Positions 41,909 to 61,284 are shown, counted from the stretch's first letter. The stretch: 64,000 nucleotides of DNA from Candidatus Latescibacterota bacterium (GCA_965208105.1 OZ242318.1:3808001-3872000), one strand, 5' to 3'. Notes: a model not told the origin generated them from the letters alone. Numbers and translations are program-made.

Positions 41909-42058
41909 TGCGGCCTGGGAAGAAATAAATTTGAGAGTAGGCGGAAAATTGATTTTGCGGACACTTTTCTTGGTTTTGGCCCTGCTGGATTATGCCTATT
42001 TTTTTCATGGATTCGAAATTTTGCTTCGTCCTGCACCATTCACCCGGAAGCTTGAATC

Positions 42059-42565
42059 ATGATCAGGTGTCTGTTGTGTGCATGTTTGCCCATCATTCTT
42101 CTCTACTGCGCCCGCAAGGGGGAGAATCCCCTGCCAGTAGAGCCGATCATGCCTTTACCAGACTACGATCTCGAGGCCACATCCTTAGAGTTTCGGACTG
42201 ATCCGAGCAAAGATCCTACCACTACCTTCCGTGTGGGTGAGGACCTGTGGGTGCGTTTTGCCATAAGCAACGTCGGAGTGCAACCTGTACGAAGGAAAGA
42301 CTTTAACTATTCTCTGCACCAAAATGATACAATCATCCAGCGCGCCCTGACGGAGCGGGGGACATGGCCAATCTATGATGGCCCCCCACTGGCGCCTGGG
42401 GACCAATATGAAATTTGGAAGTCGCCCCCCTATTCCCGTGAATGGACCTTTACGCAGAATCCAGGCACCTATGAGCTCAAGCTGGAAGTACTTTTACACC
42501 CTCAGTACGAGGAGCTGTTGAAAGACGACAACGTATTCACCCTGACGGTCGAGGTGAAGGAATAG
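42059..42565 (+). CDS. Small CARDB-like Ig-fold putative lipoprotein, copy A1
   Basis: Hydrophobic leader ending in Cys then xxxGENPLP; DLEAT, SNVG, LAPG and PGTYELKLEV...DDNVFTLTVEV pattern resembles CARDB. Confidence 0.7.
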   Translation: MIRCLLCACLPIILLYCARKGENPLPVEPIMPLPDYDLEATSLEFRTDPSKDPTTTFRVGEDLWVRFAISNVGVQPVRRKDFNYSLHQNDTIIQRALTERGTWPIYDGPPLAPGDQYEIWKSPPYSREWTFTQNPGTYELKLEVLLHPQYEELLKDDNVFTLTVEVKE

Positions 42566-42582
42566 GTGAGAGCACAGACCGG

Positions 42583-43986
42583 ATGACCAACCAGATTATT
42601 CATGCCCGTTCCCGCCGCCTGTTGATTTTCGTAGGCGTCGCTCTTTTGGTTCACGGCGTGTTGGTGGTGGCCATTACCTACCGCGAAGTGTTGGAGCGGC
42701 CTGAGCCCGTGCTGTCGGGCAAGTTCGTCAAGCGCCGGCCCTTGCAGCAGCCGTATCTGGAGCGCCGGGTCGAGCGGCCTGCGCCCCTGCCTGTCCTCAA
42801 GCGTTCGGTGACCGCCTCGCGTCCCTATGCGCGCTCGGCGGTTCAGTACACCCTTGCCCCGGTTCATCCCCAACTGCTCGGCGCCCGGCTCGAGGTGCCG
42901 GAGCTGCCGCCGCGCCCACTCTCTTTGGCCAGGGGCCTTCCCTCCAGCGGGCGTTTGCGCTCCCTTCCCACCGAGGTGTCGGTGCAGGCGGCGGATCACC
43001 TGGATCTGGGGCTGGAGTTGCTGGACATCGACCATCTGGATACGGGTCGCTACCGGGCCCTGGTGGTGCAGGATCCGGCTGACCGCCGCAATCTGGAAGG
43101 GTACGTGCACTTTTCGGCGGTGGCCATTCCCTCGGTGCGGCGCATGGAGGGCGAGGACTGGGGCCCGTATCCGGCACAGGCCTTAGCGCGCAGTGTGGAT
43201 CGCCATAGTGCCGTTTTACCCGATTTCCGCCACAGCGCCAACATCCGCGCCCTGGCGTCCCTGGCGGCTGAACTGGAGGAGCAGACGGGGTTGAAGGCGG
43301 TGTTGGACGAGGATCTGGACTTGCAGTCGCCGGCGGTGCTGGAGAGTCCGTTCATCCTGCTGACCAGCGGCCGCCGGTTCGAGCCGAGCGCGGAGGAGGC
43401 GGAGCAACTGGGCAGGTATCTGGTGTCGGGCGGGTTCGCCTACGTGGAGCAGGTAGGCGCGCCGGTGCTGGAGTTTTTGCATGGCACCTTCCGGGATCTG
43501 CACTCCCTGCGGGACTTGATTCGCATGGCCCTGGCAAGCCAGGGTTTGAGTGAGGGTACGGACTGGAGTTTCGAGCCCCTGGATGGCGACCATCCCCTGT
43601 TTCACAGTTACTATGATATCGACACCTTGCCGACCAACTACTGGCGGGCGGTTTACTCCGATGTGTTCGGTTATCACTCTAGGCATCCGCAAGATTGGGG
43701 CTTCCGATCTGATCCGACTTACGAGGGAATCCCGCCCTATTTGGAGGGAATTCACCTGAATGGCCGCCTGGTGCTGGTCTATTCACAGCAGAACTTCCGC
43801 GATTTCTGGCGCCGGCGTCCGGAGCGTCATTTGACCCGGGCGTCGGAGGTATTCATTTGGGATCTCAATGAGTCTCCTCTCCACCGTCCCAGCAGCGATC
43901 CGGCGATCCGGCTGGGGATCAACGTGGTGGTGTTCGCGCTGACCCAGGAAGGGTCGCTGGCGCGGCGCTATGTCAAGGCGAGGTAA
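42583..43986 (+). CDS. Membrane-anchored DUF4159 domain protein, copy 1
   Basis: N-terminal TM (ALLVHGVL); Pro-rich linker; DUF4159 motifs PFILLT, YL..GGF, HPLFHSYYD, LEGIHL.GRLVLVYS and AIRLGINVVVFALT. Confidence 0.8.
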   Translation: MTNQIIHARSRRLLIFVGVALLVHGVLVVAITYREVLERPEPVLSGKFVKRRPLQQPYLERRVERPAPLPVLKRSVTASRPYARSAVQYTLAPVHPQLLGARLEVPELPPRPLSLARGLPSSGRLRSLPTEVSVQAADHLDLGLELLDIDHLDTGRYRALVVQDPADRRNLEGYVHFSAVAIPSVRRMEGEDWGPYPAQALARSVDRHSAVLPDFRHSANIRALASLAAELEEQTGLKAVLDEDLDLQSPAVLESPFILLTSGRRFEPSAEEAEQLGRYLVSGGFAYVEQVGAPVLEFLHGTFRDLHSLRDLIRMALASQGLSEGTDWSFEPLDGDHPLFHSYYDIDTLPTNYWRAVYSDVFGYHSRHPQDWGFRSDPTYEGIPPYLEGIHLNGRLVLVYSQQNFRDFWRRRPERHLTRASEVFIWDLNESPLHRPSSDPAIRLGINVVVFALTQEGSLARRYVKAR

Positions 43987-43989
43987 ATC

Positions 43990-45675
43990 ATGATACTGAG
44001 GTGGCTCGCACTGGTCCTCCTCCTGCTGCGCCAGGGGGCGGCGGACCAGTGGGTGACCGTCGGCGCCGAGGACTTCGCCAAAGGGACCCTCAAAGGGGTG
44101 GAGGTCTCGCCTTCGGGAAAGCTGCGCCTGACCTTTTTCGAAGGAGCAAACCTGGCTCTGAAAATGGCGGCCAGGTCAGAGACCGGGGAGATCGTCCGCT
44201 CCTTCAGCGTTACCGACGGCAACCTTGCCACCGAATGGGATTTCGGCGGCAAGGCCCAGGTCATGGGCCGGACCATCGAGATTGATCTGGGCAGCAACCG
44301 CCTCGTCACCGGGGTGCGTATTCTACCCGGCAGTAAGTTGGGAAAACAGTATCCACAGTTCTATGTCAAGGGTTACCGCATCGACGTTGCCGCCGCCGAC
44401 GCCCCCGACCTCTGGATTCCGGTGGCCCAGAATCTCCTCAACCAGAACCGCTCCATCGACACCACCCTCGACCACACCTGGATGGAATTGGAGGAAGGTG
44501 CGCCCAAGCCTGTTGTTGCCCGCTACGTCCGCGTTACCGTAACGCGAGAGGATCCGCCCAACTGGGTGATCGTCGGTGAGGTGGAGGTCTACGGCACCGG
44601 ATTCACGTCCGCAGGTGAGTATACCTCGCTCCCCTACGAATTGGACTCCGAGATCTCCCATGCCAACCTGGGCACCTTGTTCTGGCGCGCAGAAGTGCCG
44701 GCTGGAACCAGGCTGAGCTGGCAGATTATTGCTTTGCGCCAGTTGCGTGCACAGCCCGATTGGAAAAGTGCACCGCTGATCGAATCAGAAGACGGCAGTG
44801 CCGGTATCGATTTGCGGTTGGAAGAGCGCGCCCGCTACGTGTGGTACAGGGTTTTGTTCGAGTCGGTCGATTCCCGCCTCAGCCCGGAACTGGAAGAGGT
44901 GGTGATCTCCTTCGATCAGAGCCTGATCGCCACTACCGCCCGCGGTTCGGTCGAGCCCCGGAGGGTAGCGGCGGGGGAGCCGGTGTCCCTTACCTACAAG
45001 GCCACCATAGGGGTCCGGCCCCATGACCACGGCGTGGATCTGCTGGTTCTCAACCGCTGGGGCGAGCTGGAGGAGCTATTGATCGACGGAACGAGAGTTC
45101 CACCAGGCGGGTATGAGATCATCGGCGACGAGTTCTCGGGTCAGAGGCCGAATCTTGCCCTGCGTCTGCACCCGGACTATCGCATTGGAGGTCGCGCGGA
45201 AATAGAGTTGAGGTTCACCACCGCGTTCCTCAAGGGGGCGGAGTTGGTGACCCTTTCCCTCGGGACTCTCGCGGAGGGAGCGGACCAGACCAACTTTCAG
45301 AAGGTCACCCTGCAGTTTTGGAATAGTACCCTGGTTGCCGTTTCCGGGGCCATGGAAAGCGTCCTGACCCCGTCCAGCGTGCGCTTCGTCCCCCGGATTT
45401 TCCGACCAGGCCCCGGTGGTGGTACCCAGCTTCACTTCGATCTGGCCAGGGTGCGGGTGCCGGTGCCGGTGAGCGTGGCTATCTTCGATCTTTCCGGGAG
45501 GCGCGTCCGTACCCTGATGGACGACACCCTGCTACAGTCGGGCCCCATTCTTGTCCCCTTTGACGGCTATGACGCCCGCGGCAGGGTGTTGCCGCCTGGC
45601 ATTTACCTGTGCCGCATCGAGGTCAGTGCTCAGCGCAAATTTACCGTGCTTCGCACACTCGGCATAGCCTATTGA
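43990..45675 (+). CDS. Secreted protein with discoidin (F5/8C)-like N-terminal and FlgD-Ig C-terminal domains, copy 1
   Basis: Signal peptide; DGNLATEW..IEIDLG..ARYVRV..EVEVYG; C-terminal IFDLSGRRVRTL..FDGYD..G..LPPGIYL. Confidence 0.75.
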   Translation: MILRWLALVLLLLRQGAADQWVTVGAEDFAKGTLKGVEVSPSGKLRLTFFEGANLALKMAARSETGEIVRSFSVTDGNLATEWDFGGKAQVMGRTIEIDLGSNRLVTGVRILPGSKLGKQYPQFYVKGYRIDVAAADAPDLWIPVAQNLLNQNRSIDTTLDHTWMELEEGAPKPVVARYVRVTVTREDPPNWVIVGEVEVYGTGFTSAGEYTSLPYELDSEISHANLGTLFWRAEVPAGTRLSWQIIALRQLRAQPDWKSAPLIESEDGSAGIDLRLEERARYVWYRVLFESVDSRLSPELEEVVISFDQSLIATTARGSVEPRRVAAGEPVSLTYKATIGVRPHDHGVDLLVLNRWGELEELLIDGTRVPPGGYEIIGDEFSGQRPNLALRLHPDYRIGGRAEIELRFTTAFLKGAELVTLSLGTLAEGADQTNFQKVTLQFWNSTLVAVSGAMESVLTPSSVRFVPRIFRPGPGGGTQLHFDLARVRVPVPVSVAIFDLSGRRVRTLMDDTLLQSGPILVPFDGYDARGRVLPPGIYLCRIEVSAQRKFTVLRTLGIAY

Positions 45676-45766
45676 GCAGGAGGGAACCGCTGAAAGGTTT
45701 GCATATCTTCAATCAAGGACTCGAAACTGTGCCTCGTACTGCGCCCGATGCAGGGAGGTAGAAATC

Positions 45767-46273
45767 ATGATCAGGTGTCTGTTATGGACATGTTTGTCGA
45801 TCTTTCTTTTGCACTGCTCTCGTCAGGGCAAGAATCCTCTGCCCCTGACCCCGACCATGGCTATCCCGGACCATGATCTCGAGGCCACATACTTAGAGTT
45901 TCGGACTGATCCGCGCGAAGATCCTACCACTGCCTTTCGTGTGGGGCAGGACGTGTGGGTGCGTTTCGCCATAAGCAACGTCGGAGTGCGCCCTGTACGA
46001 AGGAAAGACTTTAACTATTCTCTGCACCAAAATGATACAATCATCCAGCACGCCCTGACGGAGCGGGGGACCTGGCCAATCTATGATGGCCCCCAACTGG
46101 CGCCTGGGGACCAATATGAAATTTGGAAGTCGCCCCCCTATTCCCGTGAATGGACCTTTACGCAGAATCCAGGCACCTATGAGCTCAAGCTGGAAGTATT
46201 TCTGCACCCTCGGTACGATGAGCAGTTCACAGACGACAACGTTTTCATCCTGACGGTCGAAGTGAAGGAATAG
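45767..46273 (+). CDS. Small CARDB-like putative lipoprotein, copy A2
   Basis: GGAGG RBS; paralog of 42059..42565 with a near-identical central block. Confidence 0.7.
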   Translation: MIRCLLWTCLSIFLLHCSRQGKNPLPLTPTMAIPDHDLEATYLEFRTDPREDPTTAFRVGQDVWVRFAISNVGVRPVRRKDFNYSLHQNDTIIQHALTERGTWPIYDGPQLAPGDQYEIWKSPPYSREWTFTQNPGTYELKLEVFLHPRYDEQFTDDNVFILTVEVKE

Positions 46274-46290
46274 ATGAGAGCACAGACCGG

Positions 46291-47697
46291 ATGACCAACC
46301 AGATTATTCATGCCCGTTCCCGCCGCCTGTTGATTTTCGCAGGCGTCGCTCTTTTGGTTCACGGCGTGTTGGTGGTGGCCATTACCTACCGCGAAGTGTT
46401 GGAGCGGCCTGAGCCCGTGCTGTCGGGCAAGTTCGTCAAGCGCCGGCCCTTGCAGCAGCCGTATCTGGAGCGCCGGGTCGAGCGGCCTGCGCCCCTGCCT
46501 GTCCTCAAGCGTTCGGTGACCGCCTCGCGTCCCTATGCGCGCTCGACGGTTCAGTACACCCTTGCCCCGGTTCACCCCCAACTGCTCGGCGCCCGGCTCG
46601 AGGTGCCGGAGCTGCCGGCGCGCCCACTCTCATTGGCCAGGAGCCTTCCCTCCAGCGGGCGTTTGCGCTCCCTTCCCACCGAGGTGTCGGTGCAGGCGGC
46701 GGATCACCTGGATCTGGGGCTGGAGTTGCTGGACATCGACCATCTGGATACGGGTCGCTACCGGGCCCTGGTGGTGCAGGATCCGGCTGACCGCCGCAAT
46801 CTGGAAGGGTACGTGCACTTTTCGGCGGTGGCCATTCCCTCGGTGCGGCGCATGGAGGGCGAGAACTGGGGACCGACTACCCTGCCGGGCTTGGCGCGCG
46901 CTGTGGATCGCGAGATAGCCATTTTTCCAGATTTGCGCCACAGCGCCAACATCCGCGCCCTGGCGTCCCTGGCGGCTGAACTGGAGGAGCAGACGGGATT
47001 GAAGGCAGTGTTGGACGAGGATCTGGACTTGCAGTCGCCGGCGGTGCTGGAGAGTCCGTTCATCCTGCTGACCAGTGGCCGCCCGTTCGAGCCGAGCGCG
47101 GAGGAGGCGGAGCAACTGGGCAGGTATCTGGTGTCGGGCGGGTTCGCCTACGTGGAGCAGGTGGGTGCGGAGTATCCGGAGTGGAAGCATGGCTCCTTCC
47201 GCGATCTGCACTCTCTGCGGGACTTGATTCGCATGGCCCTGGCAAGCCAGGGTTTGGGGGAAGGCGTGGACTGGAGTTTCGAGCCCCTCGATGGCTACCA
47301 TCCCCTGTTTCACAGTTACTACGACATCGGCACCTTGCCGACCAGCTACTGGAGGGCGATTTGGGCAAATGTTTTTGGTGAGGCCAGTGGGGTAGCTCAG
47401 GGGACGCTTGAACCGTCGCCGACCTTTGAGGGCATCCCGCCCTATCTCGAAGGCATCCACCTGGATGGCCGCCTCGTGCTGGTCTATTCGCAGCAGAACT
47501 ACCGTGATTTCTGGTGGCGGCGTCCGGAGCGCCATTTGACCCGAGCGGCGGAGACCCTGATATGGGATTTCAACCAGTCTCCGCTCCACCGTCCGAGCAG
47601 CGATCCGGCGATCCGGCTGGGGATCAACGTGGTGGTGTTCGCGCTGACCCAGGAGGGATCGTTGGCTAGGCGCTACGTCAAGCGCGGTAATTCATGA
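46291..47697 (+). CDS. Membrane-anchored DUF4159 domain protein, copy 2
   Basis: Near-identical to copy 1 outside four variable segments. Confidence 0.8.
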   Translation: MTNQIIHARSRRLLIFAGVALLVHGVLVVAITYREVLERPEPVLSGKFVKRRPLQQPYLERRVERPAPLPVLKRSVTASRPYARSTVQYTLAPVHPQLLGARLEVPELPARPLSLARSLPSSGRLRSLPTEVSVQAADHLDLGLELLDIDHLDTGRYRALVVQDPADRRNLEGYVHFSAVAIPSVRRMEGENWGPTTLPGLARAVDREIAIFPDLRHSANIRALASLAAELEEQTGLKAVLDEDLDLQSPAVLESPFILLTSGRPFEPSAEEAEQLGRYLVSGGFAYVEQVGAEYPEWKHGSFRDLHSLRDLIRMALASQGLGEGVDWSFEPLDGYHPLFHSYYDIGTLPTSYWRAIWANVFGEASGVAQGTLEPSPTFEGIPPYLEGIHLDGRLVLVYSQQNYRDFWWRRPERHLTRAAETLIWDFNQSPLHRPSSDPAIRLGINVVVFALTQEGSLARRYVKRGNS

Positions 47698-47736
47698 TAC
47701 TCTGAGTCTCGCACGGTTTCCGTCCTTCTGCGGCAG
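47694..47736 (+). pseudogene. Degraded 5-prime remnant of a discoidin/FlgD gene
   Basis: ATGA overlap as at 50451; ATG ATA CTC TGA followed by ..ctcgcac..ctgcggcag, resembling the starts of 43990 and 50451. Confidence 0.55.
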
Positions 47737-47872
47737 CATAAGAAAAAAGTGCGAGTAAGAAGACATTCAATTTATGCGGGGATTCCCCTTTTGTCCGGCT
47801 GGGCTGTGCAACCTGTTCTTCAGAGATTCTGTTTCGTGAATTGTATTACACTTTGTGCCGAGAGAATTGCTT

Positions 47873-48381
47873 ATGATCAGGTATATTTTGTTGGCATGTT
47901 TTCATTTTCTTCTTTTTCACTGCGCCCGCGAAGGAGAGAATCCCCTGCCCATAGAGCCCATCCAGATTCTCCCAGACTACGATCTTGAGGCAACGTCCTT
48001 AGAATTCCGGATTGATCCTGAAAAGGCCCTACCACTGCCTTTCGCGTGGGCCAAGACGTGTGGGTGCGTTATGTAATAAAGAACCTTGGATTGCAAACTG
48101 TATCCATGAGAGCCAATTCATATTCCTTGCGCCAAAATGAAAAACTCGTCAGGTCGGCCGTGGATGAGTGGGGGGTTTGGCACGGCCTAAGAGGCTCGCC
48201 ACTGGCGTCTGGAGACTCACTGAGGTTAGGGCTCTCTCCCCCATATTCCTCCCGTGAATGGACCTTCACGGAACAGCCCGGCATCTATGAACTCAAGTTG
48301 AAAGTCTTTCTACATCCTCGGTACGAGGAGGAGAACAAAGACAACAACCAATTTACCGTGACGGTCGAGGTGAGAGAGTAG
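47873..48381 (+). pseudogene. Small CARDB-like putative lipoprotein, copy A3, frameshifted near 48025
   Basis: The N-terminal part (CAREGENPLP..DLEATSLEFR) and the C-terminal part (GQDVWVRY..PGIYELKL..NNQFTVTVEV) are in different frames; one base is missing at AAAAGGCCCT relative to A1/A2. Confidence 0.75.
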
Positions 48382-48397
48382 TACAGATGAGGATCGG

Positions 48398-48916
48398 ATG
48401 AAAATCCGCGAGATTCGGAAACGCTCTCAGCGCTGGATGGAAAAACCGGCATTGCTGGCATGCCTGTCGGTTTTTTTTCTGTGCTGTTCACGTGCCGGCG
48501 AAAACCCTTTGCCGATCGAACCCCTTCTTCCCCGTTCCGAGTACGACCTGGAAGCGTCGGAATTAAAGATCCAGAATCAACAAGGTGGACCGCATAGACC
48601 GAGGATAAAAATAGGCGCAGATGTCTGGATCTTTACCAGTATATGCAACGTGGGACTACAGCCCATCCCTGGCGCGTACTACGGAGAGTCTCTGGAGGTA
48701 AACGGCAAAATCGTACACCGGCATTCATTAGGTGTATATTCATCTTTTGGACCATTGGCGCCTGGAGGATGCAACAAAGGGGCGGTAAGTTTATCGCGGA
48801 TGCCGGAGGAGCCGGGTCGATACGAGTTCAAGTTCCAAGTGCATCTCTCTTCCAGGCTTGAGGAGGAGAACAAGGACAACAATGAGTTGGTGTTGGTAGT
48901 CGAAGTGGAACAATAG
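48398..48916 (+). CDS. Small CARDB-like putative lipoprotein, copy A4 (alternative start 48437)
   Basis: CSRAGENPLP, YDLEAS, CNVG, LAPGGC and EPGRYEF..EENKDNNELVLVVEV motifs. Confidence 0.7.
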   Translation: MKIREIRKRSQRWMEKPALLACLSVFFLCCSRAGENPLPIEPLLPRSEYDLEASELKIQNQQGGPHRPRIKIGADVWIFTSICNVGLQPIPGAYYGESLEVNGKIVHRHSLGVYSSFGPLAPGGCNKGAVSLSRMPEEPGRYEFKFQVHLSSRLEEENKDNNELVLVVEVEQ

Positions 48917-48989
48917 GCACGCTCGATTGCGGGCAGTGCGCTCGCGGACGGAGGCCGGCAAACGCTTCCAAGGGCTCCAGGGGCACGGC

Positions 48990-49028
48990 GGCAACCTATT
49001 CACCCTTACGGTCGAGGTGAAAGACTAG
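48990..49028 (+). pseudogene. 3-prime remnant of a small lipoprotein gene (A1/A2 type)
   Basis: Encodes GNLFTLTVEVKD*, compared with DNVFTLTVEVKE* of A1, immediately before DUF4159 copy 3. Confidence 0.7.
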
Positions 49029-49044
49029 TGAGGATGAGGATCGA

Positions 49045-50454
49045 ATGAGAAACCGCAAAATGCGGGGTCGCACTCAGCGCTGGTGGTTTTTCATCGGCGT
49101 CGCTCTCCTGGTTCACGGCGTGTTGGTGGTGGCCATTACCTACCGCGAAGTGTTGGAGCGGCCTGAGCCCGTGCTGTCGGGCAAGTTCGTCAAGCGCCGG
49201 CCCTTGCAGCAGCCGTATCTGGAGCGCCGGGTCGAGCGGCCTGCGCCCCTGCCTGTCCTCAAGCGTTCGGTGACCGCCTCGCGTCCCTATGCGCGCTCGA
49301 CGGTTCAGTACACCCTTGCCCCGGTTCATCCCCAACTGCTCGGCGCCCGGCTCGAGGTGCCGGAGCTGCCGGCGCGCCCCCTCTCATTGGCCAGGGGCCT
49401 TCCCTCCAGCGGGCGCTTGCGCTCCCTTCCCACCGAGGTGTCGGTGCAGGCGGCGGATCATCTGGATCTGGGGCTGGAGTTGCTGGACATCGACCATCTG
49501 GATACTGGTCGCTACCGGGCCCTGGTGGTGCAGGACCCTGCTGACCGCCGCAATCTGGAAGGGTACGTGCACTTTTCGGCGGTGGCCATTCCCTCGGTGC
49601 GGCGCATGGAGGGCGAGGACTGGGGCCCGTGGACGTGGGAGTCCATAGCGCGCAGCGTGGATCGGGAGATGTCCACATTTCCCGATTTGCTCCACAGCGC
49701 CAATATCCGCGCCCTGGCGTCCCTGGCGGCTGAACTGGAGGAGCAGACGGGGTTGAAGGCGGTGTTGGACGAGGATCTGGACTTGCAGTCGCCGGCGGTG
49801 CTGGAGAGTCCGTTCATCCTGCTGACCAGCGGCCGCCCGTTCGAGCCGAGCGTGGAGGAGGCGGAGCAACTGGGCCGATACCTGGCGTCGGGCGGGTTCG
49901 CCTACGTGGAGCAGGTGGGCGCGCCGTGGCCGGAGCTTCAGCAAGGCACCTTCCGCGACCTGCACTCCCTGCGCGACCTGATTCGCATGGCCCTGGCAAG
50001 CCAGGGCTTGAGTGAGGGTACGGACTGGAGTTTCGAGCCCCTTGGTCACGACCATGCCCTGTTTCACAGTTACTACGACATCGAAACCCTGCCCACCAAC
50101 TACTGGCGAGCAATCTGGGCAGATGTGAGTGGTCTTAGGGCGGTGGGAGTGGCTAGTGGAGGGCTTACACCGTCGCCGACTTTCGAGGGAATCCCGCCCT
50201 ATTTGGAGGGGATTCACCTGGATGGCCGCCTGGTGCTGGTCTATTCGCAGCAGAACTACCGTGATTTCTGGTGGCGGCGTCCGGAGCGCCATTTGACCCG
50301 AGCGGCCGAGCCCCTGATATGGAACTTCAATGAATCTCCGCTCCACCGTCCGAGCAGCGATCCGGCGATCCGGCTGGGGATCAACGTGGTGGTGTTCGCG
50401 CTGACCCAGGAGGGATCGTTGGCTCGTCGCTACGTCAAGCGGGGCAAATCATGA
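49045..50454 (+). CDS. Membrane-anchored DUF4159 domain protein, copy 3
   Basis: Different first 15 or so residues, then near-identical to copies 1 and 2 outside the variable segments. Confidence 0.8.
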   Translation: MRNRKMRGRTQRWWFFIGVALLVHGVLVVAITYREVLERPEPVLSGKFVKRRPLQQPYLERRVERPAPLPVLKRSVTASRPYARSTVQYTLAPVHPQLLGARLEVPELPARPLSLARGLPSSGRLRSLPTEVSVQAADHLDLGLELLDIDHLDTGRYRALVVQDPADRRNLEGYVHFSAVAIPSVRRMEGEDWGPWTWESIARSVDREMSTFPDLLHSANIRALASLAAELEEQTGLKAVLDEDLDLQSPAVLESPFILLTSGRPFEPSVEEAEQLGRYLASGGFAYVEQVGAPWPELQQGTFRDLHSLRDLIRMALASQGLSEGTDWSFEPLGHDHALFHSYYDIETLPTNYWRAIWADVSGLRAVGVASGGLTPSPTFEGIPPYLEGIHLDGRLVLVYSQQNYRDFWWRRPERHLTRAAEPLIWNFNESPLHRPSSDPAIRLGINVVVFALTQEGSLARRYVKRGKS

Positions 50455-52136
50455 TACCCTGGGGGCTGGCACTCCTCGCGGTCCTGGTGCGGCAGGGAGC
50501 GGCGGACCAGTGGGTGACCGCCGGCGCCGAGGACTTCGCCCTGGGGACCCTCGAAGGGGTGGAGGTCTCGGCCGCCGGCAGGTTGCGCCTGACCTCTTTC
50601 GAAGGGCTCAACTTGGCTTTGGATAGGGCGGCCAGGTCGGGCAGCCAGGAGCTGACTCGTTCCTTCAGCGTTACCGACGGTAACCTTAAAACCGAATGGA
50701 GATTCGACGGCCAAGCCCGGGTCATGGGCCGGACCATCGAGATCGATCTGGGCGGCAACCGACTCGTCAGCCGGGTGCGCATTCTTCCCGGCGGCAAGCT
50801 GGGGGAACTGAATCCACTGTTTTTTCTAAGGGGCTACCGCATTGACGTTGCCGCCGCCAACGCCCCCGACCTCTGGATTCCAGTGGCCGAGAATCTCCTC
50901 AACCAGAACCGCTTCATCGACACAACTCTCGACAACACCTGGATGGAATTCGAGCAGGGCGAGCCCAGGCCGGTCATGGCCCGTTACGTGCGTATAACAG
51001 TAACTCGGGAGGACCTGCCCAACTGGGTGATCGTCGGTGAGGTGGAGGTCTACGGCACCGGATTCAAGCCCGCCGGTGAATATGCCTCCCCCCCCTACGA
51101 AGTAGGCACCGAGGTCTCCCACGCCAACCTGGGCACCTTGATCTGGCGCGCCGATTTGCCGCCAGGGACCAAACTGAGCTGGCAGATCTATGCTTCGCGC
51201 CAGGAGGACCCACAACCCAAATGGGAGGAGATTCCCATCATTGAAAAAGGGGACGGCACCGCTGGTATCGATTTGCAGATGGAAGAACGCGCACGATACG
51301 TGTGGTACAGGGTTTTGTTCGAAACCGTCGATTCCCGCCTCAGCCCGGAGCTGGAAGAGGTGGTGATCACCTTCGACCGGAGCTTGATCGCCACTACGAC
51401 TTACGGTTCGGTCGAGCCCCGCCTAGTAGCGGCGGGGGAGCCGGTGTCCCTTACCTACAAGGCCACCATCGAGGTGGAACCCCAGGACTACGGGGTGGAT
51501 ATGCTCATTCTCAACCGCTGGGGCGAGCTCGAAGAGCTTTTGATCGACGGTACGAGGGTTCCACCCGGCGGGTATGAAATCATCGGCGACGAGGTCTCGG
51601 TGCAGAGGCCGAATATATCCCTGCGTCTGCACCCGGACTATCGCATTGAAGGCCGCGCCGAAATAGAGTTGAGGTTCACCACCGCGTTCCTCAAGGGACC
51701 CGAGGTGGTGACCCTTTTTCTCGGGACTTTCGCGGATGGAGCGGATCCGACAAACCTGCAGCCGGTTTCTCCGCAGTCAGCGGGAAGGACCCTGGTTGCC
51801 GTTTCCGGGACCACGGGAAGCGTCCTCTCCCAGTCCAGCGTGCGCCTCGACCCGCGGATTTTCCGACCCGGCCCCGGCGGAGGTACCCGGCTTCACTTCG
51901 ATCTGGCCAAGGTGTGGGTGCCGGTGCCGGTGAGCGTGGCCATCTTCGATCTCTCCGGGCGCCGCGTCCGCACTCTGTTGGAGGATGCCCTGCTGCAGTC
52001 GGGCCCCATTGTCGTCCCCTTTGACGGCTATGACGGCGGTGGTCGGGTGTTGCCTCCCGGCATTTACCTTTGCCGCATCAAGGTCAGGGCCCAACGCCCG
52101 GTGACCGTGCTTCGCACCCTCGGCATTGCCTACTGA
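50451..52136 (+). CDS. Secreted discoidin-like/FlgD-Ig protein, copy 2
   Basis: Same length (561 aa) and colinear with 43990..45675; ATGA overlap with DUF4159 copy 3. Confidence 0.75.
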   Translation: MIPWGLALLAVLVRQGAADQWVTAGAEDFALGTLEGVEVSAAGRLRLTSFEGLNLALDRAARSGSQELTRSFSVTDGNLKTEWRFDGQARVMGRTIEIDLGGNRLVSRVRILPGGKLGELNPLFFLRGYRIDVAAANAPDLWIPVAENLLNQNRFIDTTLDNTWMEFEQGEPRPVMARYVRITVTREDLPNWVIVGEVEVYGTGFKPAGEYASPPYEVGTEVSHANLGTLIWRADLPPGTKLSWQIYASRQEDPQPKWEEIPIIEKGDGTAGIDLQMEERARYVWYRVLFETVDSRLSPELEEVVITFDRSLIATTTYGSVEPRLVAAGEPVSLTYKATIEVEPQDYGVDMLILNRWGELEELLIDGTRVPPGGYEIIGDEVSVQRPNISLRLHPDYRIEGRAEIELRFTTAFLKGPEVVTLFLGTFADGADPTNLQPVSPQSAGRTLVAVSGTTGSVLSQSSVRLDPRIFRPGPGGGTRLHFDLAKVWVPVPVSVAIFDLSGRRVRTLLEDALLQSGPIVVPFDGYDGGGRVLPPGIYLCRIKVRAQRPVTVLRTLGIAY

Positions 52137-54792: not shown

Positions 54793-57429
54793 ATGGGTCT
54801 CATCCTGTTCATACTGTTTCTGATTCCGGGCGAAGGCGCCTTCGCCGACGATGGGGAGCCGAACCCCGACCTGCTGCAGCGCTCGTCCTTCGCACCGTAC
54901 CAGAACTACGCCGAGGTGCCCTTCCGCCCCTACCGGGAACGCCTGCGAATCGATCCGCGCTACAACTATTTCGGTGAATTTCTCGCCGAAGGATATCACG
55001 CCTTCCGCCTCGACGAGCAGCGGCCCGGTGGCAGCGTCGTCGGCAAGGACGACGTCTACCGCGGCCTCTTCAATACCCTCCTGGTTGCGCGCAGTTCCCA
55101 CGGCGAATTCAGTGCCGCCCTCACCGTAGGCGACGATATCCGCCACACCCTGTCGGCGCTGACCATGCAGCGGGCAGGCTTCAACGGGATGCGCTGGGAA
55201 CTGGTCTATCCCCGCCAACGCCTCACCCTGCTGGCTTCGCGCGGTTTCGACAGCGGCGATTTCCCCGGATTCAGGAGCTTCTCCACACCGGTGGTGGTCG
55301 ATCCCACCGCCCCGGGCTACGACCTCCTCTCGTCTACCATGGTGGTGGTGGAGGAAGAAAACCCGGTCTACACCCTGGGAGGTCACTGGGAAGGCGAATT
55401 CGGCCCCGCCCTGACCCTCGGGGCGACCCTGGTGAACCAGCAGCAGCTCAACTCGGTGGCCGGTCGCAAGGGAGGGCTGCTGCGCGGCAGCGTGCCCTAT
55501 CCGGAGATGTTGCCGCCGGAAAGGCTGATGCTGCGGGTAACCGAAGATGGGGCCCCGGAGGAGGGGCCAGGCGCTGCGGTGTACGAAGTGGTGCTTGAGA
55601 TCGAGGCTACCGACGGCAGCGTACACAGCCTTCTCAGCAGCGATCCCGAAAGTCCCAACTACCATTCCCGGCTGGAACCCGTGATCAACGGCGGCCGCCG
55701 GGTCGACGGTCACTTGGAAGTGAGCGGCGATGAGAAGTTGTTCTACACTTTCAGACTACCCGCCGAGGTGACGCCGCGGCGGGCGCGATTCCGGGTGGAG
55801 GCCGCCAATGATTTCCGCATTGCCGTCTCCCAGCAACATACCATTCCGCGCCGAGGCCACCCCACGACCCCCTATACCACCTTGTACCGGGCGCATGGTC
55901 GCAGGGGAGATCTTTCCAACCGCAAAGAACTGGTCCTGGACTATGGCCTCGCCACTGGGCAGACCCTGTTCGGATTGGACTTCGCCGCGGCCCTGGTGGG
56001 GCTCAAGCTCAAGGGCGAGATCGCCATGAACAGCCTGTACCGGAAATTCCCGGTTCTCGGCGGCCGCAATCTGGACCGCCGCGCCAGAGCTTGGTACCTG
56101 ACCGCGGTCAAGACCGCCGACCGCTTCCCCCACCTGACTATGGGGGCGGAGCTCTTCTACATGGGGCCGCGCTACGGCGGCGACTACGACAGCCGCCGAG
56201 GCGGCGTAGTGCTCTATACCGACGTAGGAGGACCGGACAGGAGAGCGCGGGGCGCGGCGGAGTACGTCCTGGTAGACGACAACGACGACCGCGACCGCTA
56301 CGCCGACGACAACAGCAAGGATTTCCCCGGGTCTTCCGATCCCCAGGCGGGGGTTTATCCTGGATTGGACGAGGACAACGACAACATCCCCGACGACGAC
56401 CGCAACGCCAACGGCATACCCGATTTCCAGGAGCCCTTCCTGCTTTTCTACTCCGATCCGCAGGAATTCGTCTACGGTCCGGACATGAACAACAACGGGG
56501 TCATCGACTCGCGCGAAAACGACGCCAAACCCGACTATCCCTACGACCGGGACAGGCGCGGCCGCCATTTCCTGGTCTCGCTCCGTCCGTTGCCTGGCCT
56601 GGAGCTGGGCGCCGGAAACTATCGCCTCCAGACCATGGTGGCCGGCGGCCGGGCTATCTCCACCTACCTGCGGGCTTCCTACCGCTCCGCCGATCCCCGG
56701 CGTTACGAGCTGCGTCTCAACCACGACTCCAAGCGGGTGCGGGACGACATCCCCGATCCGGTCTACGTCTTCGATCCGGAGCGCAACCTGACCCCTCGGG
56801 ATCCCCCCGATCCCGATCCCCTGCTGCAGCGCAACAGTTGGGTGCACACCTCTTTCGCCGGGCTGCGCTTCACCCGCCTTGCCCCGTTGAATCTGGAGAG
56901 CAACGTGAAGCGGGTGCACAATCGCATGCACGACCTCACGTCCACCGAAGAGGTCGAGAAAGACCGGCGCAGCGATTTCACCTGGGTGAACCGGGCCGAC
57001 TACCGCTGGCAGTGGCGGAAGCTGACGATACACCCGATGTACAAGAACATCCGGCAGCGGGTGACCCTGGGGTCGCTGGACCGTCCCTTGATCTCCACCG
57101 TGCAGTCCGCCCCCATCCTGCGGATGGACTACGCCTTCAACGACGAGCTCGTGCTCCAGATGGGCCAGCAGGGTTTTCGCCTGCGCGCCCTGGGCATCGA
57201 CCGCGGGCTCGCCTTCCGCTCCATCGACAAGCTGGACGAGACCCGGAGTTTTTCTTCCACCGATTTCATGATCATGTTCACCATCAGAGGGAATTATCTG
57301 AGCAACATAGTAACCGCGAATACGGGCATTCACCGCCAGCGGATGGAATTCGACGAAGGGGAGCCGAGGGAGAAACGCAAGCTCACCCGTCTGTTCGTGG
57401 AGGTGGTAACCGGCTTCGAGCGTTACTGA
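54793..57429 (+). CDS. Putative outer-membrane beta-barrel protein, tandem paralog of 52153..54783
   Basis: Signal peptide ending AFA; same motif set; ends LTRLFVEVVTGFERY. Confidence 0.65.
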   Translation: MGLILFILFLIPGEGAFADDGEPNPDLLQRSSFAPYQNYAEVPFRPYRERLRIDPRYNYFGEFLAEGYHAFRLDEQRPGGSVVGKDDVYRGLFNTLLVARSSHGEFSAALTVGDDIRHTLSALTMQRAGFNGMRWELVYPRQRLTLLASRGFDSGDFPGFRSFSTPVVVDPTAPGYDLLSSTMVVVEEENPVYTLGGHWEGEFGPALTLGATLVNQQQLNSVAGRKGGLLRGSVPYPEMLPPERLMLRVTEDGAPEEGPGAAVYEVVLEIEATDGSVHSLLSSDPESPNYHSRLEPVINGGRRVDGHLEVSGDEKLFYTFRLPAEVTPRRARFRVEAANDFRIAVSQQHTIPRRGHPTTPYTTLYRAHGRRGDLSNRKELVLDYGLATGQTLFGLDFAAALVGLKLKGEIAMNSLYRKFPVLGGRNLDRRARAWYLTAVKTADRFPHLTMGAELFYMGPRYGGDYDSRRGGVVLYTDVGGPDRRARGAAEYVLVDDNDDRDRYADDNSKDFPGSSDPQAGVYPGLDEDNDNIPDDDRNANGIPDFQEPFLLFYSDPQEFVYGPDMNNNGVIDSRENDAKPDYPYDRDRRGRHFLVSLRPLPGLELGAGNYRLQTMVAGGRAISTYLRASYRSADPRRYELRLNHDSKRVRDDIPDPVYVFDPERNLTPRDPPDPDPLLQRNSWVHTSFAGLRFTRLAPLNLESNVKRVHNRMHDLTSTEEVEKDRRSDFTWVNRADYRWQWRKLTIHPMYKNIRQRVTLGSLDRPLISTVQSAPILRMDYAFNDELVLQMGQQGFRLRALGIDRGLAFRSIDKLDETRSFSSTDFMIMFTIRGNYLSNIVTANTGIHRQRMEFDEGEPREKRKLTRLFVEVVTGFERY

Positions 57430-57456: not shown

Positions 57457-60400
57457 ATGGTTCAACTGACCCTTGCCGCTATTTTCCTGGGAGCCGTTAG
57501 CGCCAGCATGTTCCACGATTCCCCCGGGGAGTTGGGCAAGGAATTCGACGCGGCGCAGAAGCTCATGGTGATGGGGGATTTTGACGGTGCCGTCGACGCC
57601 TACGAGGACCTCATAAATACCCCGTCTTCCTTGTTCCTGTTGCCTTCGCAGGTGAGAGTCGAGGTCCGAGGGGAAGGCCTGCTCCTCAGAGTGGCGGCGG
57701 CCTACCAGGTGGCCGGCAGCTACCGGCGCCGAGGTGAGGAGGAGCGCCAGAAGGACGACGACGGCGCCGCCGTCCGGGGACGTGAGTCCCTGCGCAAGGC
57801 GGCGCGATATTACAACCTGGTGAGCCGGGATTCGCTGGCTCCCGAAGATTTGCGCCAGCGCGCAGCCTACCAGGAGGGAAAATCCTATTTCATCGGCGAG
57901 GATTACGAGCAGGGCGCCGCCGCCTTCGAGAGTTTCCGCGATCGTTTCCCGCACGGAGAATACGCCCTCGACGCCCGCTATCACCTTGCCTGGTCCACCT
58001 ACAGGCTGGGATCGTGGGAGCGGGCTGCGGCGGAATTCCGCGCCGTGGCCGCGGCCGAGCCCGGCAGCGACAGGGCCCTCAGAGCCCTCTTTCAATTGGG
58101 CGAGTGTCTCGAGCGTCTGCAGCGCCGGGAAGAAGCCCTTGCTGCTTTCAGGCAACTTGCCCAACATTTCGATTCCAAGGTCTACGACGAGCGGCGCCGG
58201 GTTGAAGACCTCATGCTGGTGTTGCGCAAGGACTTTCTGGAAACCGAGCGGGAACTGATCGGCAAGGCGCACATCCGGGTGGGGGACGGCTATCGCCACC
58301 TCGATTCCCTGGAAACGGCCATGGAATGGTACCGCCGCGCGGCGCAGCGCTTTCCCACCGAGGGAGCCCTGGTGAAGACCGCCTATCTGCGTCTGGCCGA
58401 AATCCACGCCGATGAGAGACGCATCGACCCGGCCTTGACGGCCTACCGCACCGCCCTGGAGGAGGTGGTGGATCCACTCTTCCGGGCCCAGGTCCAGGCC
58501 GAGCTCATGATCCTGGCCCATGAAGCCGGGCGCTTCGAAGAATCGGCCGCCGCCCACCGGTTCTACATTCAGGCCTTCGGTGAACAGGCCGAAGAGACGG
58601 GGATTTCGGTGCAGCAGGCGCAGTTGCGGGTGGGCGAAGCGCTGCGCCAGGAAGCGCTGCGCCGGCACCGGGAAACGGAAGGGGATTCCCTCTACGGCGA
58701 AGCCCTGACGGCGTACCGGGAGTTGCTACGGATGAATCCCCCCGACAGCCTGGCGGCCGAGGCCCTGCTGGGCAGCGGGTTCTGCCTGCAGAGTCTGGGT
58801 GAGGGAGCTGCCGCCCGGGAGCAGTATGAAGCGGTTCGAGACAACTATGGCGCCACCCGGTCCGCCGCCTGGGCTCAACTGCAACTGGCGCGCATCCACT
58901 CCGAGGGCGGAGACTGGCCGGCGACCATGGCCTCGTACCAGTCACTGTTGCAGATCGGCGACGCCGAGCTGCGCGACATCGCCCGCGTCGAGCTGGCTCT
59001 GCTCCACCAGCGCCGCCGGGAAACGGGCGAAGCCCTGGCTCTGCTCCGCCCGATCGAGCCCGATTCTCCCGAGTTCAGCCGGGCCCAACTAGCTCTGGTG
59101 CGCCTGCATACGGCGAGCGGGGACTGGGAAGAGGCGCGGCAGGTCCTGATCCGCGCCAGGCAAGGGAAGGTCAGCCCCCCGGTGCGCGCCGAGCTCGATT
59201 ACACCGAAGCGGAGATCGCCTTCCAAGCCCGCGATTATGCCGCCACCCTCGAGCTCCTCGCCCGGGTGGATACCACCCTCTTGGAGGACCCTTTCGCCTA
59301 CGAACACCTCTATGTTCGCGGCGTATCCAGCTACCAGGTGGGCGACCATGCCGCCGCCCTCGAGCAGTTGGTTGCCTACTGCGGCCGATCACCTTTGCGC
59401 CGGGCGCGGCAGCAGGCCATCCGGCTGATCGGTCTGTGCCTGGCAGAAACCGTCGACCGGGATACCGCGGTGCGGCGCTTCCGCCGGTGGGCCGATGCCG
59501 GCGCCACCGACAGCGAGCGCCTGGAGTGGGAGCTGGGGCTGGCCCGCTTTCAGATCGACACTGGCCGCCATGCCGAAGCCCTGGAGTTGTTGGACCGGCT
59601 GGAAATGGTGTCGCCGGGTCAGCAGCAGGTGCTGCTGCTGCGGGGAATCGTGCGGATGGCGGCCAACGAGTGGGCTCCGGCGAGGGAGGTCCTCCTCGGC
59701 ATGGAGACCGACGGCCTCTCCGGCCCCGATGCTCATCGGCGGCTCTTCCTGCTTGGCGTGGCAGCGATGAATCTTGCCGACTATGGCGGGGCGGTAGAGC
59801 ATCTTCAGGAGTTGCTGGCTTTGAAGCCCCCTGAGGACATTTCCCGCCCCGCCCGGCTCTACCTGGGAAAAAGCTTCTTCGCTCTGAGACAGCACCGGGA
59901 GGCCGCTAAAACCTTGCTGCAATTGGCCGAGGACTTTGGGGGCCACGCGGAAGCCGGGGAAGCGGCCTATCTCGCCGGCGACAACCTCTACCTGATAGAA
60001 GACTATCGCGGGGCGGCAACGGCCTATGCCCGCGTCGAGCACGGAAAGTTCATGCCCGCCGCGGGGTTGGCCCGGGCCTGGTGCCTTCTGGAGCTGGAGG
60101 AAGAAGGACCCTTCCTGGAAGCGCTCGAGAACGTCCAAATCGACCATCCCCACAGCCCCGAGGCCCGCACCGCGGCCATGATGGCAGGCGATTACAATTA
60201 CAGCGGCAAAAAGTATGAGGCGGCGCGCCATGCGTACCGGACGCTCATGGAACAGTACCCCGACAGCGGCGAGGCCGCGCGGGCGCGGTCACGCCTGGTG
60301 GACCTCGAGGACCTGGAAGCCGATCGCCTCTACCAGGCGGCCATGGCCGCCTTCGACGGCGGCGACTACGAGGGCGCGCGGCGGCAGCTGGAGGCGGTGG

Positions 60401-60600
60401 CGCAGCGTTTTCCCGGCACCCTGTCGGAGATGGCGGCGCGCTGCAACATCGGGGTATGCTACGAGAAGACGGGACAGTGGCGCCGGGCCGCCGCCGTCTA
60501 CGACAGCCTGCTGCAGAGGGGGGAGGCCGATCCGCAGTACGGCGCCATGCTGCGCTTTGCGCGGGAGCACCGCGACTGGATTCGCGACTACCGACTCTAA
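57457..60600 (+). CDS. Large exported TPR protein (CpoB/BamD-like TPR repeats)
   Basis: Signal peptide; many TPR units with FP/YP turns (RFPHGEYA, QYPDSGEA, RFPGT). Confidence 0.85.
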   Translation: MVQLTLAAIFLGAVSASMFHDSPGELGKEFDAAQKLMVMGDFDGAVDAYEDLINTPSSLFLLPSQVRVEVRGEGLLLRVAAAYQVAGSYRRRGEEERQKDDDGAAVRGRESLRKAARYYNLVSRDSLAPEDLRQRAAYQEGKSYFIGEDYEQGAAAFESFRDRFPHGEYALDARYHLAWSTYRLGSWERAAAEFRAVAAAEPGSDRALRALFQLGECLERLQRREEALAAFRQLAQHFDSKVYDERRRVEDLMLVLRKDFLETERELIGKAHIRVGDGYRHLDSLETAMEWYRRAAQRFPTEGALVKTAYLRLAEIHADERRIDPALTAYRTALEEVVDPLFRAQVQAELMILAHEAGRFEESAAAHRFYIQAFGEQAEETGISVQQAQLRVGEALRQEALRRHRETEGDSLYGEALTAYRELLRMNPPDSLAAEALLGSGFCLQSLGEGAAAREQYEAVRDNYGATRSAAWAQLQLARIHSEGGDWPATMASYQSLLQIGDAELRDIARVELALLHQRRRETGEALALLRPIEPDSPEFSRAQLALVRLHTASGDWEEARQVLIRARQGKVSPPVRAELDYTEAEIAFQARDYAATLELLARVDTTLLEDPFAYEHLYVRGVSSYQVGDHAAALEQLVAYCGRSPLRRARQQAIRLIGLCLAETVDRDTAVRRFRRWADAGATDSERLEWELGLARFQIDTGRHAEALELLDRLEMVSPGQQQVLLLRGIVRMAANEWAPAREVLLGMETDGLSGPDAHRRLFLLGVAAMNLADYGGAVEHLQELLALKPPEDISRPARLYLGKSFFALRQHREAAKTLLQLAEDFGGHAEAGEAAYLAGDNLYLIEDYRGAATAYARVEHGKFMPAAGLARAWCLLELEEEGPFLEALENVQIDHPHSPEARTAAMMAGDYNYSGKKYEAARHAYRTLMEQYPDSGEAARARSRLVDLEDLEADRLYQAAMAAFDGGDYEGARRQLEAVAQRFPGTLSEMAARCNIGVCYEKTGQWRRAAAVYDSLLQRGEADPQYGAMLRFAREHRDWIRDYRL

Positions 60601-60627: not shown

Positions 60628-61284
60628 ATGGGCATAGATTCCTTCCTTCTCGATCAGTTTGACAAGGGCGGTCCGCTGATGTGGCCCCTGGCGCTGTGCT
60701 CGCTGACGGCGCTCACCGTCGGTCTGGAGCGCCTGTGGGTGCTGCTGCGGGTCCCGGGGGACGAGGGCGCCCGCGCCGAAATGGAGGCGGTTCTGGCGCG
60801 GAAGGAGGAGCTGGACGGGGCGGATCTTCTGGCCCACCTGCTGGAACGCAAGGGGGTGCTGGCGGCGGTCTACGCCGCGGTGCAGCGCAAGTATCTGGCG
60901 CTTTTGGAGGAAGGCCAGGGAGCGGCGGAGCAGCGCGCCGAGCTGGGTAGGGAGGCCAACGCGGCCTGCCGCGAGTATCTGGGCCAGTTTCTTCCGGTTC
61001 TGAGCACGATTGGCAGCATCGCGCCGCTGTTGGGTCTTCTGGGCACGATCACGGGGATGATCAAGGCCTTTGCGGCCATCGCCACGGCGGGGGTGGGGGA
61101 TCCGAGCCAGGTGGCCGACGGCATCTCGGAGGCGCTGATCACCACGGCGACGGGTCTGATCATCGCGATCCCGGTGATCGTGCTGCACCGCTACCTGGCG
61201 CTGCGCGCCGGCCGCGTCATGCGGCGCCTGGAGCTCTACACCCATGCCCTGGGCCACGCCCTGGTGGAGGAGGAGCGCCGGTGA
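60628..61284 (+). CDS. exbB: MotA/TolQ/ExbB proton channel family protein
   Basis: GGPLMWPL..ER, LSTIGSIAPLLGLLGTITGMIKAF and GISEALITTATGLIIAIP motifs. Confidence 0.93.
   Translation: MGIDSFLLDQFDKGGPLMWPLALCSLTALTVGLERLWVLLRVPGDEGARAEMEAVLARKEELDGADLLAHLLERKGVLAAVYAAVQRKYLALLEEGQGAAEQRAELGREANAACREYLGQFLPVLSTIGSIAPLLGLLGTITGMIKAFAAIATAGVGDPSQVADGISEALITTATGLIIAIPVIVLHRYLALRAGRVMRRLELYTHALGHALVEEERR

Follow-up and report, generated by a model that had tools for sequence, protein, structure and literature searches.

A tandem array of DUF4159 genes with a constant framework and four variable blocks in an uncultured, sponge-associated Latescibacterota bacterium

A 64,000-nucleotide stretch of the genome of a sponge-associated, uncultured Candidatus Latescibacterota bacterium (GCA_965208105.1 OZ242318.1:3808001-3872000, referred to below as the window) contains three co-oriented open reading frames (ORFs) of the DUF4159 family, here called A, B and C, in which a nearly identical framework is interrupted by four short blocks, V1 to V4, of sharply differing sequence. 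That the framework evolves in concert through gene conversion is well supported by comparison with a sister species and with a neighbouring gene. The best overall explanation of the array, to which a probability of roughly 0.6 is assigned, is that conversion homogenizes the framework of inner-membrane-anchored periplasmic paralogs and that their partner-specific loops resist it. The DUF4159 domain occurs widely and its structure is solved; no function is assigned to it, and a full-text literature search found the family named only in a Pfam database article.

Framework of the three paralogs

All three proteins match the DUF4159 profile PF13709 above its gathering cut-off of 25.9 bits (Table 1) and are 86-88% identical, B and C being 88% and 86% identical to A. 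Variable columns number 81 of the 469 in the A/B/C alignment; 48 of the 68 columns of V1-V4 vary, as against 17 of 380 in the framework (residues 18-465 outside the V blocks), and the others lie in the first 17 residues (12) and at the C-terminus (4). These counts bear out an earlier note, made from the sequence alone, which described three near-identical paralogs with four sharply differing blocks, and the pattern is real and far beyond chance. The peptide strings and block coordinates listed in that note agree with the translations, apart from V1, whose true start at residue 192 lies four codons upstream of the start it gave. In 60-nt windows, A and C share 95-100% DNA identity over 42646-43155 (100% over 42676-42825), and identity goes down to 42-68% in V1 and V3. 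As had also been proposed, the near base-identity includes synonymous sites, synonymous divergence (dS) being 0.014-0.064 in F1, the part of the framework that comprises residues 18-191. The scattered substitutions reported just before V3 are real (segment F3; nonsynonymous divergence, dN, 0.04-0.09 and dS 0.28-0.54), and A/T-ending codons are indeed commoner in the V blocks, where the G+C content of third codon positions (GC3) is 0.59-0.68 compared with 0.82 in the framework. V3 varies in length (24, 23 and 24 codons in A, B and C, respectively), and the 17 N-terminal residues, cytoplasmic in the predicted topology, constitute a fifth variable block in which C is unlike A and B at 12 of 17 positions.

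That the constant stretches or the copy number arose as an assembly artefact is highly improbable. Logan contigs are short, break in the repeated framework and are blind to whole-gene linkage and rare recombinants, and no short-read contig covers a whole gene. However, the genome is a single 4.85-Mb contig, Logan contigs cross the unit junctions without differences (43920-44585, 45207-46021, 47638-49138 and 50395-51046), one contig of another study joins V1 of C to V2 of C, and proteins A, B and C are all recorded in the protein collection. Several apparent joints between contigs were set aside as cross-mapping between paralogs or as having short sides and low depth, and a joint from 51889 to 45429 was discarded since it arises from a compared stretch ending at 51900.

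Self-comparison revealed a repeat unit larger than the DUF4159 gene, running from a small lipoprotein gene through DUF4159 to the gene for a 561-aa secreted protein. Unit A (42055-45685) comprises a 168-aa gene, DUF4159 and the 561-aa gene; unit B (45763-47736) retains the first two and only about the first 45 nt of the third; unit C (48989-52146) consists of DUF4159 and the 561-aa gene, preceded by a decayed small gene and a 172-aa relative. The genome of a sister species of the same genus (G001) carries a single cassette, collinear with C through the ExbB gene (window 48993-61301, 88% DNA identity), and has no A or B, showing that C is the ancestral copy and that this species has A and B, together with the small lipoprotein genes, as additional copies.

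Utilizing the 561-aa gene as an internal neutral yardstick, dS was 0.39 between cassettes A and C (whose 561-aa proteins are 77% identical), 0.43 between A and G001 and 0.33 between C and G001. Since divergence between cassettes is close to divergence from the sister species, the cassettes are about as old as the species split. The DUF4159 framework behaves differently, with a dS of 0.12-0.14 among A, B and C versus 0.34-0.36 to G001; in F1 the corresponding values are 0.01-0.06 and 0.25-0.32, indicating silent sites that can change between species yet are identical within the genome. The A-C comparison gives 27 differences among 235 4-fold degenerate sites in DUF4159 and 64 among 259 in the 561-aa gene (Fisher p=1.8e-4). 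The longest identical runs of such sites (62 of 494 for A-C, 79 of 304 for A-B and 64 of 247 for B-C) were reached in 3, 10 and 19 of 10,000 shuffles, respectively. The grouping of the copies also switches along the gene, A and B standing together apart from C at 24 of 25 informative sites in nt 1-100, and B and C apart from A at 26 of 35 in nt 1201-1410. Paralogs closer than orthologs at silent sites and mosaic tracts, by which concerted evolution of a multigene family is recognized, are thus both present, and the earlier proposal that gene conversion homogenizes the framework is upheld by the dS contrast, the 4-fold counts, the run shuffles and the grouping switch.

An account in which A, B and C are recent duplicates that underwent no conversion, their loops having changed fast under positive selection, would accommodate a nearly identical framework and could point to V2, the only block whose dN/dS ratio (omega) exceeds 1 (2-9), a value discounted here because about 6 synonymous sites are too few. 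Such an account is very unlikely. Synonymous divergence is raised in the V blocks too (0.69-0.83), and framework dS spans 0.01 to 0.54 from segment to segment. Taken together, a yardstick dS that is as high between A and C as to the sister species, the switch in closest copy along the gene and the long identical runs indicate that recent duplication cannot explain the pattern.

Three recorded protein variants fit ongoing exchange between the copies, including one transfer of a V block. P0123, a member of the protein cluster, has the C N-terminus on an otherwise A-type protein; P0001 combines the N-terminus and V1 of C (1 difference) with V2-V4 of A (0 differences); and P0122, an A-type allele of 90% identity, departs from A at 16 of the 68 V positions and at 19 of the 380 in the framework. 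P0001 and P0123, which come from ENA contigs of 13,980 bases, may be assembly chimeras formed across identical framework.

Divergence of the variable blocks

Pooled over V1-V4, the paralogs differ by a dN of 0.35-0.56 and an omega of 0.5-0.76. Where G001 is set beside them, dN is 0.38-0.54 among the paralogs and 0.39-0.52 to G001. For the ortholog pair C-G001, V-block dS is 0.38 and dN 0.39, compared with a framework dS of 0.36 and dN of 0.053, an approximately seven-fold difference in dN; across comparisons omega is 0.5-1.0 in the V blocks versus 0.11-0.15 in the framework. These data show that the V blocks change at a roughly neutral rate and are as different between paralogs as between species. 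The view that the blocks are diversified or swapped as cassettes stands in part: divergence is near-neutral, no elevation of dN/dS is demonstrated, and one variant, P0001, which may be a chimera, has an exchanged block. The sliding-window comparison suggested as a check gave drops of identity in the V blocks and an omega never clearly above 1.

The same blocks vary across the family. In an alignment of 108 sequences, entropy peaks in the V blocks at each of the three depths. Among 77 distant sequences, residues are present at V1 in 28, at V2 in 50, at V3 in 36 and at V4 in 28, and V1, V3 and V4 are largely lineage-specific loop insertions. DUF4159 is multi-copy in many metagenome-assembled genomes (MAGs) of Latescibacterota and Gemmatimonadota. 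Four further paralog sets in other genomes were aligned, and for three of them the DNA was analysed as well. In one of these, a triple, framework dS is 0.11-0.19, with a dS of 0.9-1.6 and a dN of 0.41-0.43 in V2-V4; in another, a pair, F1 dS is 0.01 and V2-V4 dN 0.28. A further pair, in which framework dS is saturated (1.0), has a dN of 0.027 in the framework versus 0.62 in V2-V4, indicating that the loops are hypervariable without any gene conversion. The signature of concerted evolution is repeated in two of the three arrays analysed at the DNA level, and the V positions vary in three of the four sets, which makes their variability a family trait rather than something confined to a single genome.

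In its constant scaffold and few hypervariable blocks, the array is reminiscent of the targets of diversity-generating retroelements (DGRs) and of cassette systems, and P0001, with its junction of C-type V1 to A-type V2-V4, might be taken for a product of a dedicated diversifier, either a DGR or a set of silent donor cassettes, that rewrites the blocks. The presence of such a system is nevertheless scarcely credible. The RVT_1 domain had a single match in the genome, about 3.3 Mb from the array, and a genome-wide search with the 12 V-block sequences gave no second copy beyond chance 13-19-mers. The differences in V3 are indels. No switching repeats of the kind used in phase variation were found in the array, only trivial repeats of 2-3.7 copies, and promoter-like sites were at chance level (2 found versus 3.2 expected). 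In contigs of other studies, from runs labelled sponge or marine metagenome, V1 and V2 of C and V4 of B recur with 0-2 differences; the alleles are stable. The term CDR-like (after complementarity-determining regions), applied to the blocks in the earlier note, is apt for the pattern but not for the mechanism, no dedicated diversifying machinery having been found. The RVT_1 gene itself lies at genome position 509,620-510,255 (L091), with a 460-aa open frame.

Predicted architecture and candidate functions

An AlphaFold2 (AF2) model of protein A, with a mean predicted local distance difference test score (pLDDT) of 78.9, consists of a transmembrane (TM) helix at residues 2-37, a disordered linker to about residue 139 and an alpha/beta head at residues 150-467. 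The linker is rich in Pro and Arg, with a pLDDT below 50 over residues 75-139 and no secondary structure from residue 38 to about 135. A positively charged N-terminal tail followed by a signal-anchor predicts an N-in orientation of the TM helix and a periplasmic head. A His in the TM helix is kept in 99 of the 108 aligned sequences, the position four residues before it being Ser in 40 and Ala in 61, and the helix is followed by an FVKRxP box in which F, K, R and P are retained in 92, 88, 90 and 98 of 108, respectively. Foldseek matched the head to 4i66 with an expect value (E) of 1.3e-10, a probability of 1.00 and a template modelling score (TM-score) of 0.74 on the target, and matched it weakly to ThuA-like and IFT52 N-terminal domains. 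Residues G155, G173, P256, Y279, G283, G284, N447, L453, T454 and G457 are invariant among the 108.

An identity as a class I-like glutamine amidotransferase was considered and ruled out because no invariant or nearly invariant Cys that could serve as nucleophile occurs among the 108 sequences, V2 being what follows strand 285-290. E272, H337, H341 and D345 of A (window ~43396-43617) are each kept in 99-107 of the 108, the H-x3-H-x3-D part lying directly upstream of V3, and may together form a putative metal or ligand site of the head. Within the model, V1, V2 and V4 are placed with confidence and include short helices (pLDDT ~81-94); judged by the order of secondary structure, V1 and V2 each occupy a crossover from strand to helix, and V3 and V4 lie on either side of a single hairpin.

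The genome encodes 8 DUF4159 genes over the cut-off, each no more than ~18 kb from an ExbB set; three such sets are involved, none of them with a TonB_C gene. TonB_C itself has a single match over the cut-off (2,164,054), located at a fourth set, ExbB-ExbD-ExbD. TonB_C (PF03544) was absent from A, B and C, in which DUF4159 was the sole domain found. Across 54 loci from other genomes, each 15 kb or longer, relatives within 10 kb were counted for several neighbours of the array, with the barrel gene found in 30 loci, the lipoprotein p244 in 22, the tetratricopeptide repeat (TPR) protein in 21 and the 561-aa protein in 19.

The tandem copies, with C ancestral and an age close to that of the sister-species split, have been overwritten by repeated gene conversion in the anchor, in the linker and over most of the head scaffold, which left four short blocks as divergent from one another as from the sister-species ortholog. 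Conversion tracts might stop at the blocks where ~30-55% nucleotide mismatch blocks heteroduplex extension, or homogenized variants might be selected against. Since the scaffold is near-identical while four loops differ, the loops are the likely partner-specific part of the protein, and V1-V4 may plausibly make up a diversified binding surface of the head. The shared anchor, motor-proximal box and core fold would have to fit a common ExbB/ExbD motor, TPR protein and barrels.

The reading that competes most directly with partner specificity holds that the V blocks are unconstrained loops drifting neutrally, with no distinct specificity, and that they escape conversion only through divergence that blocks heteroduplex extension. 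It agrees with a V-block omega that never clearly exceeds 1, with a V3 of low pLDDT, with the absence of V1, V3 and V4 from most distant relatives, and with a GC3 that falls toward mutation-driven values in the blocks. Against it, the model places V1, V2 and V4 with confidence and these blocks retain invariant anchor residues, the same blocks vary in three of the four other paralog sets, conversion tracts flanking V1 and V2 in all three copies spared blocks of 27-75 nt, and aromatics, mainly Trp, are enriched (13 of 203 V residues versus 11 of 774 framework residues for Trp, both small numbers). Neutral drift as a full account is thus considered unlikely, though well worth keeping in view, and where functional diversification is set against a mere lack of constraint, the balance tips slightly toward diversification.

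A more specific and doubtful proposal, drawn by analogy with TonB, is that the paralogs are DUF4159-headed force transducers that replace TonB and are coupled to ExbB/ExbD, with V1-V4 as specificity loops for individual outer-membrane or cargo partners and with conversion keeping the anchor, box and scaffold interchangeable. The envelope machine so envisaged would comprise barrels with calcium-binding-type loops, the giant TPR protein, a lipoprotein and the secreted discoidin protein. If this were true, the array would amount to a natural domain-swap experiment locating the working face of the DUF4159 head.

Several observations weigh against partner-specific loops or against coupling to a motor. 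Positive selection was not demonstrated, omega for the V blocks being 0.5-0.76 among the paralogs, ~1.0 for C-G001 and ~0.5 for the conversion-free pair, which is what unconstrained loops would give. V3, at a pLDDT of 50-63, is possibly just floppy. A 98%-identical pair from the comparison (L016/L017) differs at 8 of 174 F1 columns, in the linker, and at 0 V columns, and the loci and genomes compared are kin, so that the sets are not fully independent. ExbB and ExbD each occur within 10 kb in only 9 of the 54 loci, and at the position four residues ahead of the TM His the window copies carry Ala instead of Ser. The local ExbD is cut to its last third, and the array may accordingly not be motor-coupled here. 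The array is a case of concerted evolution in a multigene family whose hypervariable loops resist conversion, and the protein is a candidate motor-coupled envelope transducer. The array separates constant parts (the anchor, the linker box and the core fold) from four loops that are free or driven to differ, and its main value lies in naming concrete candidates for the working-loop residues of the DUF4159 head. It also offers a clean case of bacterial concerted evolution, made easier to quantify by a yardstick gene and a single-copy sister species.

Neighbouring genes and comparison with known systems

Coordinates of the paralogs, their variable blocks and the surrounding genes are collected in Table 1.

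Table 1. Features of the DUF4159 array and its downstream cluster, in window coordinates.
Feature	Position	Strand	Basis or remark
168-aa small lipoprotein gene, cassette A	42059..42565	+	lipobox; CARDB-like C-terminal half; GC3 0.61; dS 0.20 to B copy
DUF4159 paralog A, 467 aa	42583..43986	+	PF13709 65.6 bits; AF2 model; Foldseek 4i66 E 1.3e-10
V1 of A, residues 192-216	43156..43230	+	pLDDT ~93; helix 198-206
V2 of A, residues 294-302	43462..43488	+	after strand 285-290
V3 of A, residues 357-380, length-variable	43651..43722	+	pLDDT 50-63
V4 of A, residues 421-430	43843..43872	+	alignments, model
561-aa secreted protein, cassette A	43990..45675	+	F5/8 type C domain; FlgD_ig/T9SS-CTD-like tail (type IX secretion system C-terminal domain); not homogenized
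168-aa small lipoprotein gene, cassette B	45767..46273	+	ORF, lipobox, self-comparison
DUF4159 paralog B, 468 aa	46291..47697	+	PF13709 59.1 bits; alignments
V1 of B	46864..46938	+	alignments
V2 of B	47170..47196	+	alignments
V3 of B, one codon shorter	47359..47427	+	alignments
V4 of B	47548..47577	+	alignments; unchanged in contig of another study
561-aa gene start remnant after B, rest deleted	47698..47736	+	A/B homology stops at 44034/47736
Decayed small lipoprotein gene	47873..48373	+	72-74% DNA identity to A and B copies; in-frame stops
172-aa small lipoprotein gene upstream of C	48398..48916	+	38% identical to A copy; CARDB E 0.019
DUF4159 paralog C, 469 aa, ancestral copy	49045..50454	+	PF13709 60.9 bits; collinear with single ortholog of G001
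V1 of C	49618..49692	+	alignments; contigs of other studies
V2 of C	49924..49950	+	alignments; contig of another study
V3 of C	50113..50184	+	alignments
V4 of C	50305..50334	+	alignments
561-aa secreted protein, cassette C	50451..52136	+	start overlaps stop of C by 4 nt
885-aa predicted outer-membrane beta-barrel, Asp/Asn-rich loop	52126..54783	+	probable true start 52153
878-aa barrel paralog, 57% identical	54793..57429	+	self-comparison
1047-aa TPR protein	57457..60600	+	profile search
ExbB/TolQ-type motor subunit	60628..61284	+	PF01618 E 5e-29
ExbD gene remnant, C-terminal third only	61311..61514	+	~650 bp deleted versus paralogous cluster and G001
244-aa lipoprotein (p244), conserved in these clusters	61514..62248	+	lipobox; relative within 10 kb in 22 of 54 long loci
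Fourth DUF4159 paralog, start only, 57% identical	63613..64000	+	continues past window end

A signal peptide, an F5/8 type C domain and an end resembling FlgD_ig or a type IX secretion system (T9SS) tail were recognized in the 561-aa proteins. A 111-aa ORF at 48046-48381 is left in the decayed small lipoprotein gene. The small lipoproteins belong to a family of 158-204 aa with a CARDB-like C-terminal half, a D-N-N motif at the end and an unusually low GC3 of 0.56-0.62. They form arrays beside DUF4159 genes: the window has four, of which one is decayed, and another cluster (L011 3910-9229) has six. With tblastn, relatives were found in only 1 of 77 loci from other genomes.

The two ~880-aa neighbours are predicted to be large outer-membrane beta-barrels. 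The 885-aa protein has a signal peptide and a C-terminal Tyr, and its AF2 model is all-beta with a predicted TM-score (pTM) of 0.70; Foldseek gave generic barrel matches at low TM-scores. A PDB sequence search with it returned nothing, and in the ESM Atlas its closest clusters are unnamed, the nearest named one, at a score of 0.89, being a lead only. Both barrels (52126-57429) carry an invariant Asp/Asn-rich stretch, at about residues 496-581 of the 876-aa form, which is like calcium-binding repeats and lies in a low-confidence part of the model, in proteins outside all Pfam families. Searches of Pfam and NCBIfam at E<=0.01 gave no match for the 885- and 878-aa proteins, the 168- and 172-aa lipoproteins, p244 or the 206-aa protein p206; at E up to 5 in Pfam, the matches among these were weak and confined to the 172-aa lipoprotein (CARDB, E 0.019). 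Rfam yielded no RNA family within the window.

Between the segment from ExbB to p244 (60295-62282) and a paralogous cluster at a distance of 0.73 Mb (genome 4,593,918-4,596,515), identity is 95-98%, compared with 72-83% for the rest of the two clusters. The window copy is ~650 bp shorter, one ExbD being gone and the other reduced to its last third, which looks like a second gene-conversion event together with a deletion that disabled the local motor. Further downstream, 62245-63263 holds a 206-aa ORF (GC3 0.55, without relatives) and a 94-aa reverse ORF at the place which, in G001, is taken by a third barrel gene following p244, a difference that points toward local rearrangement. The part of the window upstream of the array (2123-41662) carries genes for a sulfatase, a GH106-like rhamnosidase, two FG-GAP/ASPIC proteins, five PhyH dioxygenases, a TonB-dependent receptor and a protein with a T9SS-type sorting tail, a gene set consistent with a polysaccharide-degrading, sponge-associated lifestyle.

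Among known systems, the Opa proteins of Neisseria are encoded by multiple gene copies with a conserved framework and semivariable and hypervariable loop blocks, mosaics being formed by recombination between copies; they are barrels exposed on the surface of a pathogen, and pentamer repeats switch them on and off. The DUF4159 array shares with them several paralogs, a DNA framework that is nearly identical, hypervariable loop blocks and recombination between copies, and differs in a head that is predicted to be periplasmic, in having no switching repeats and in belonging to a sponge-associated uncultured organism. DGR targets likewise combine a constant scaffold with localized hypervariability, as the array does; unlike in those systems, no reverse transcriptase lies nearby, no template repeat was found, V3 differs by indels and the alleles are stable. 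The protein of known structure, 4i66 (Hoch_4089 of Haliangium ochraceum), has the same DUF4159 fold; beyond it, the proteins of the window possess a TM anchor, a long linker and the V1, V3 and V4 insertions, these last being absent from most distant PF13709 members.

The paralogs resemble TonB and TolA in a disordered proline-rich linker and a globular head, and several occur per genome; the His of the TM helix and, in this genome, the nearby ExbB sets that have no TonB_C may be further points of likeness. Points of difference are the absence of a TonB_C domain from A, B and C and the truncated local ExbD. An SHLS motif is named for TonB/TolA-like TM helices in the main text of Williams-Jones et al. 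(2025; PMC12204202); Ala replaces its first Ser in the window copies, and neither its Leu nor its second Ser is conserved among the 108 sequences. TonB paralogues, as that text states with HasB as a named case, can specialize for particular receptors. The same text describes transducers with a TM His, a linker and a head with the fold of von Willebrand factor A (vWA), encoded beside TPR and tolQ/tolR-like genes (PMC12204202). Its main text does not contain the words DUF4159, Latescibacter or Gemmatimonad, the sections consulted describe no hypervariable paralog arrays, and its heads are of vWA fold where those of the window have DUF4159, ThuA-like and IFT52 N-terminal domains as best matches. 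With the transducers described there, the paralogs have in common a TM His, a disordered linker, a non-TonB alpha/beta head and TPR and tolQ/tolR-like neighbours.

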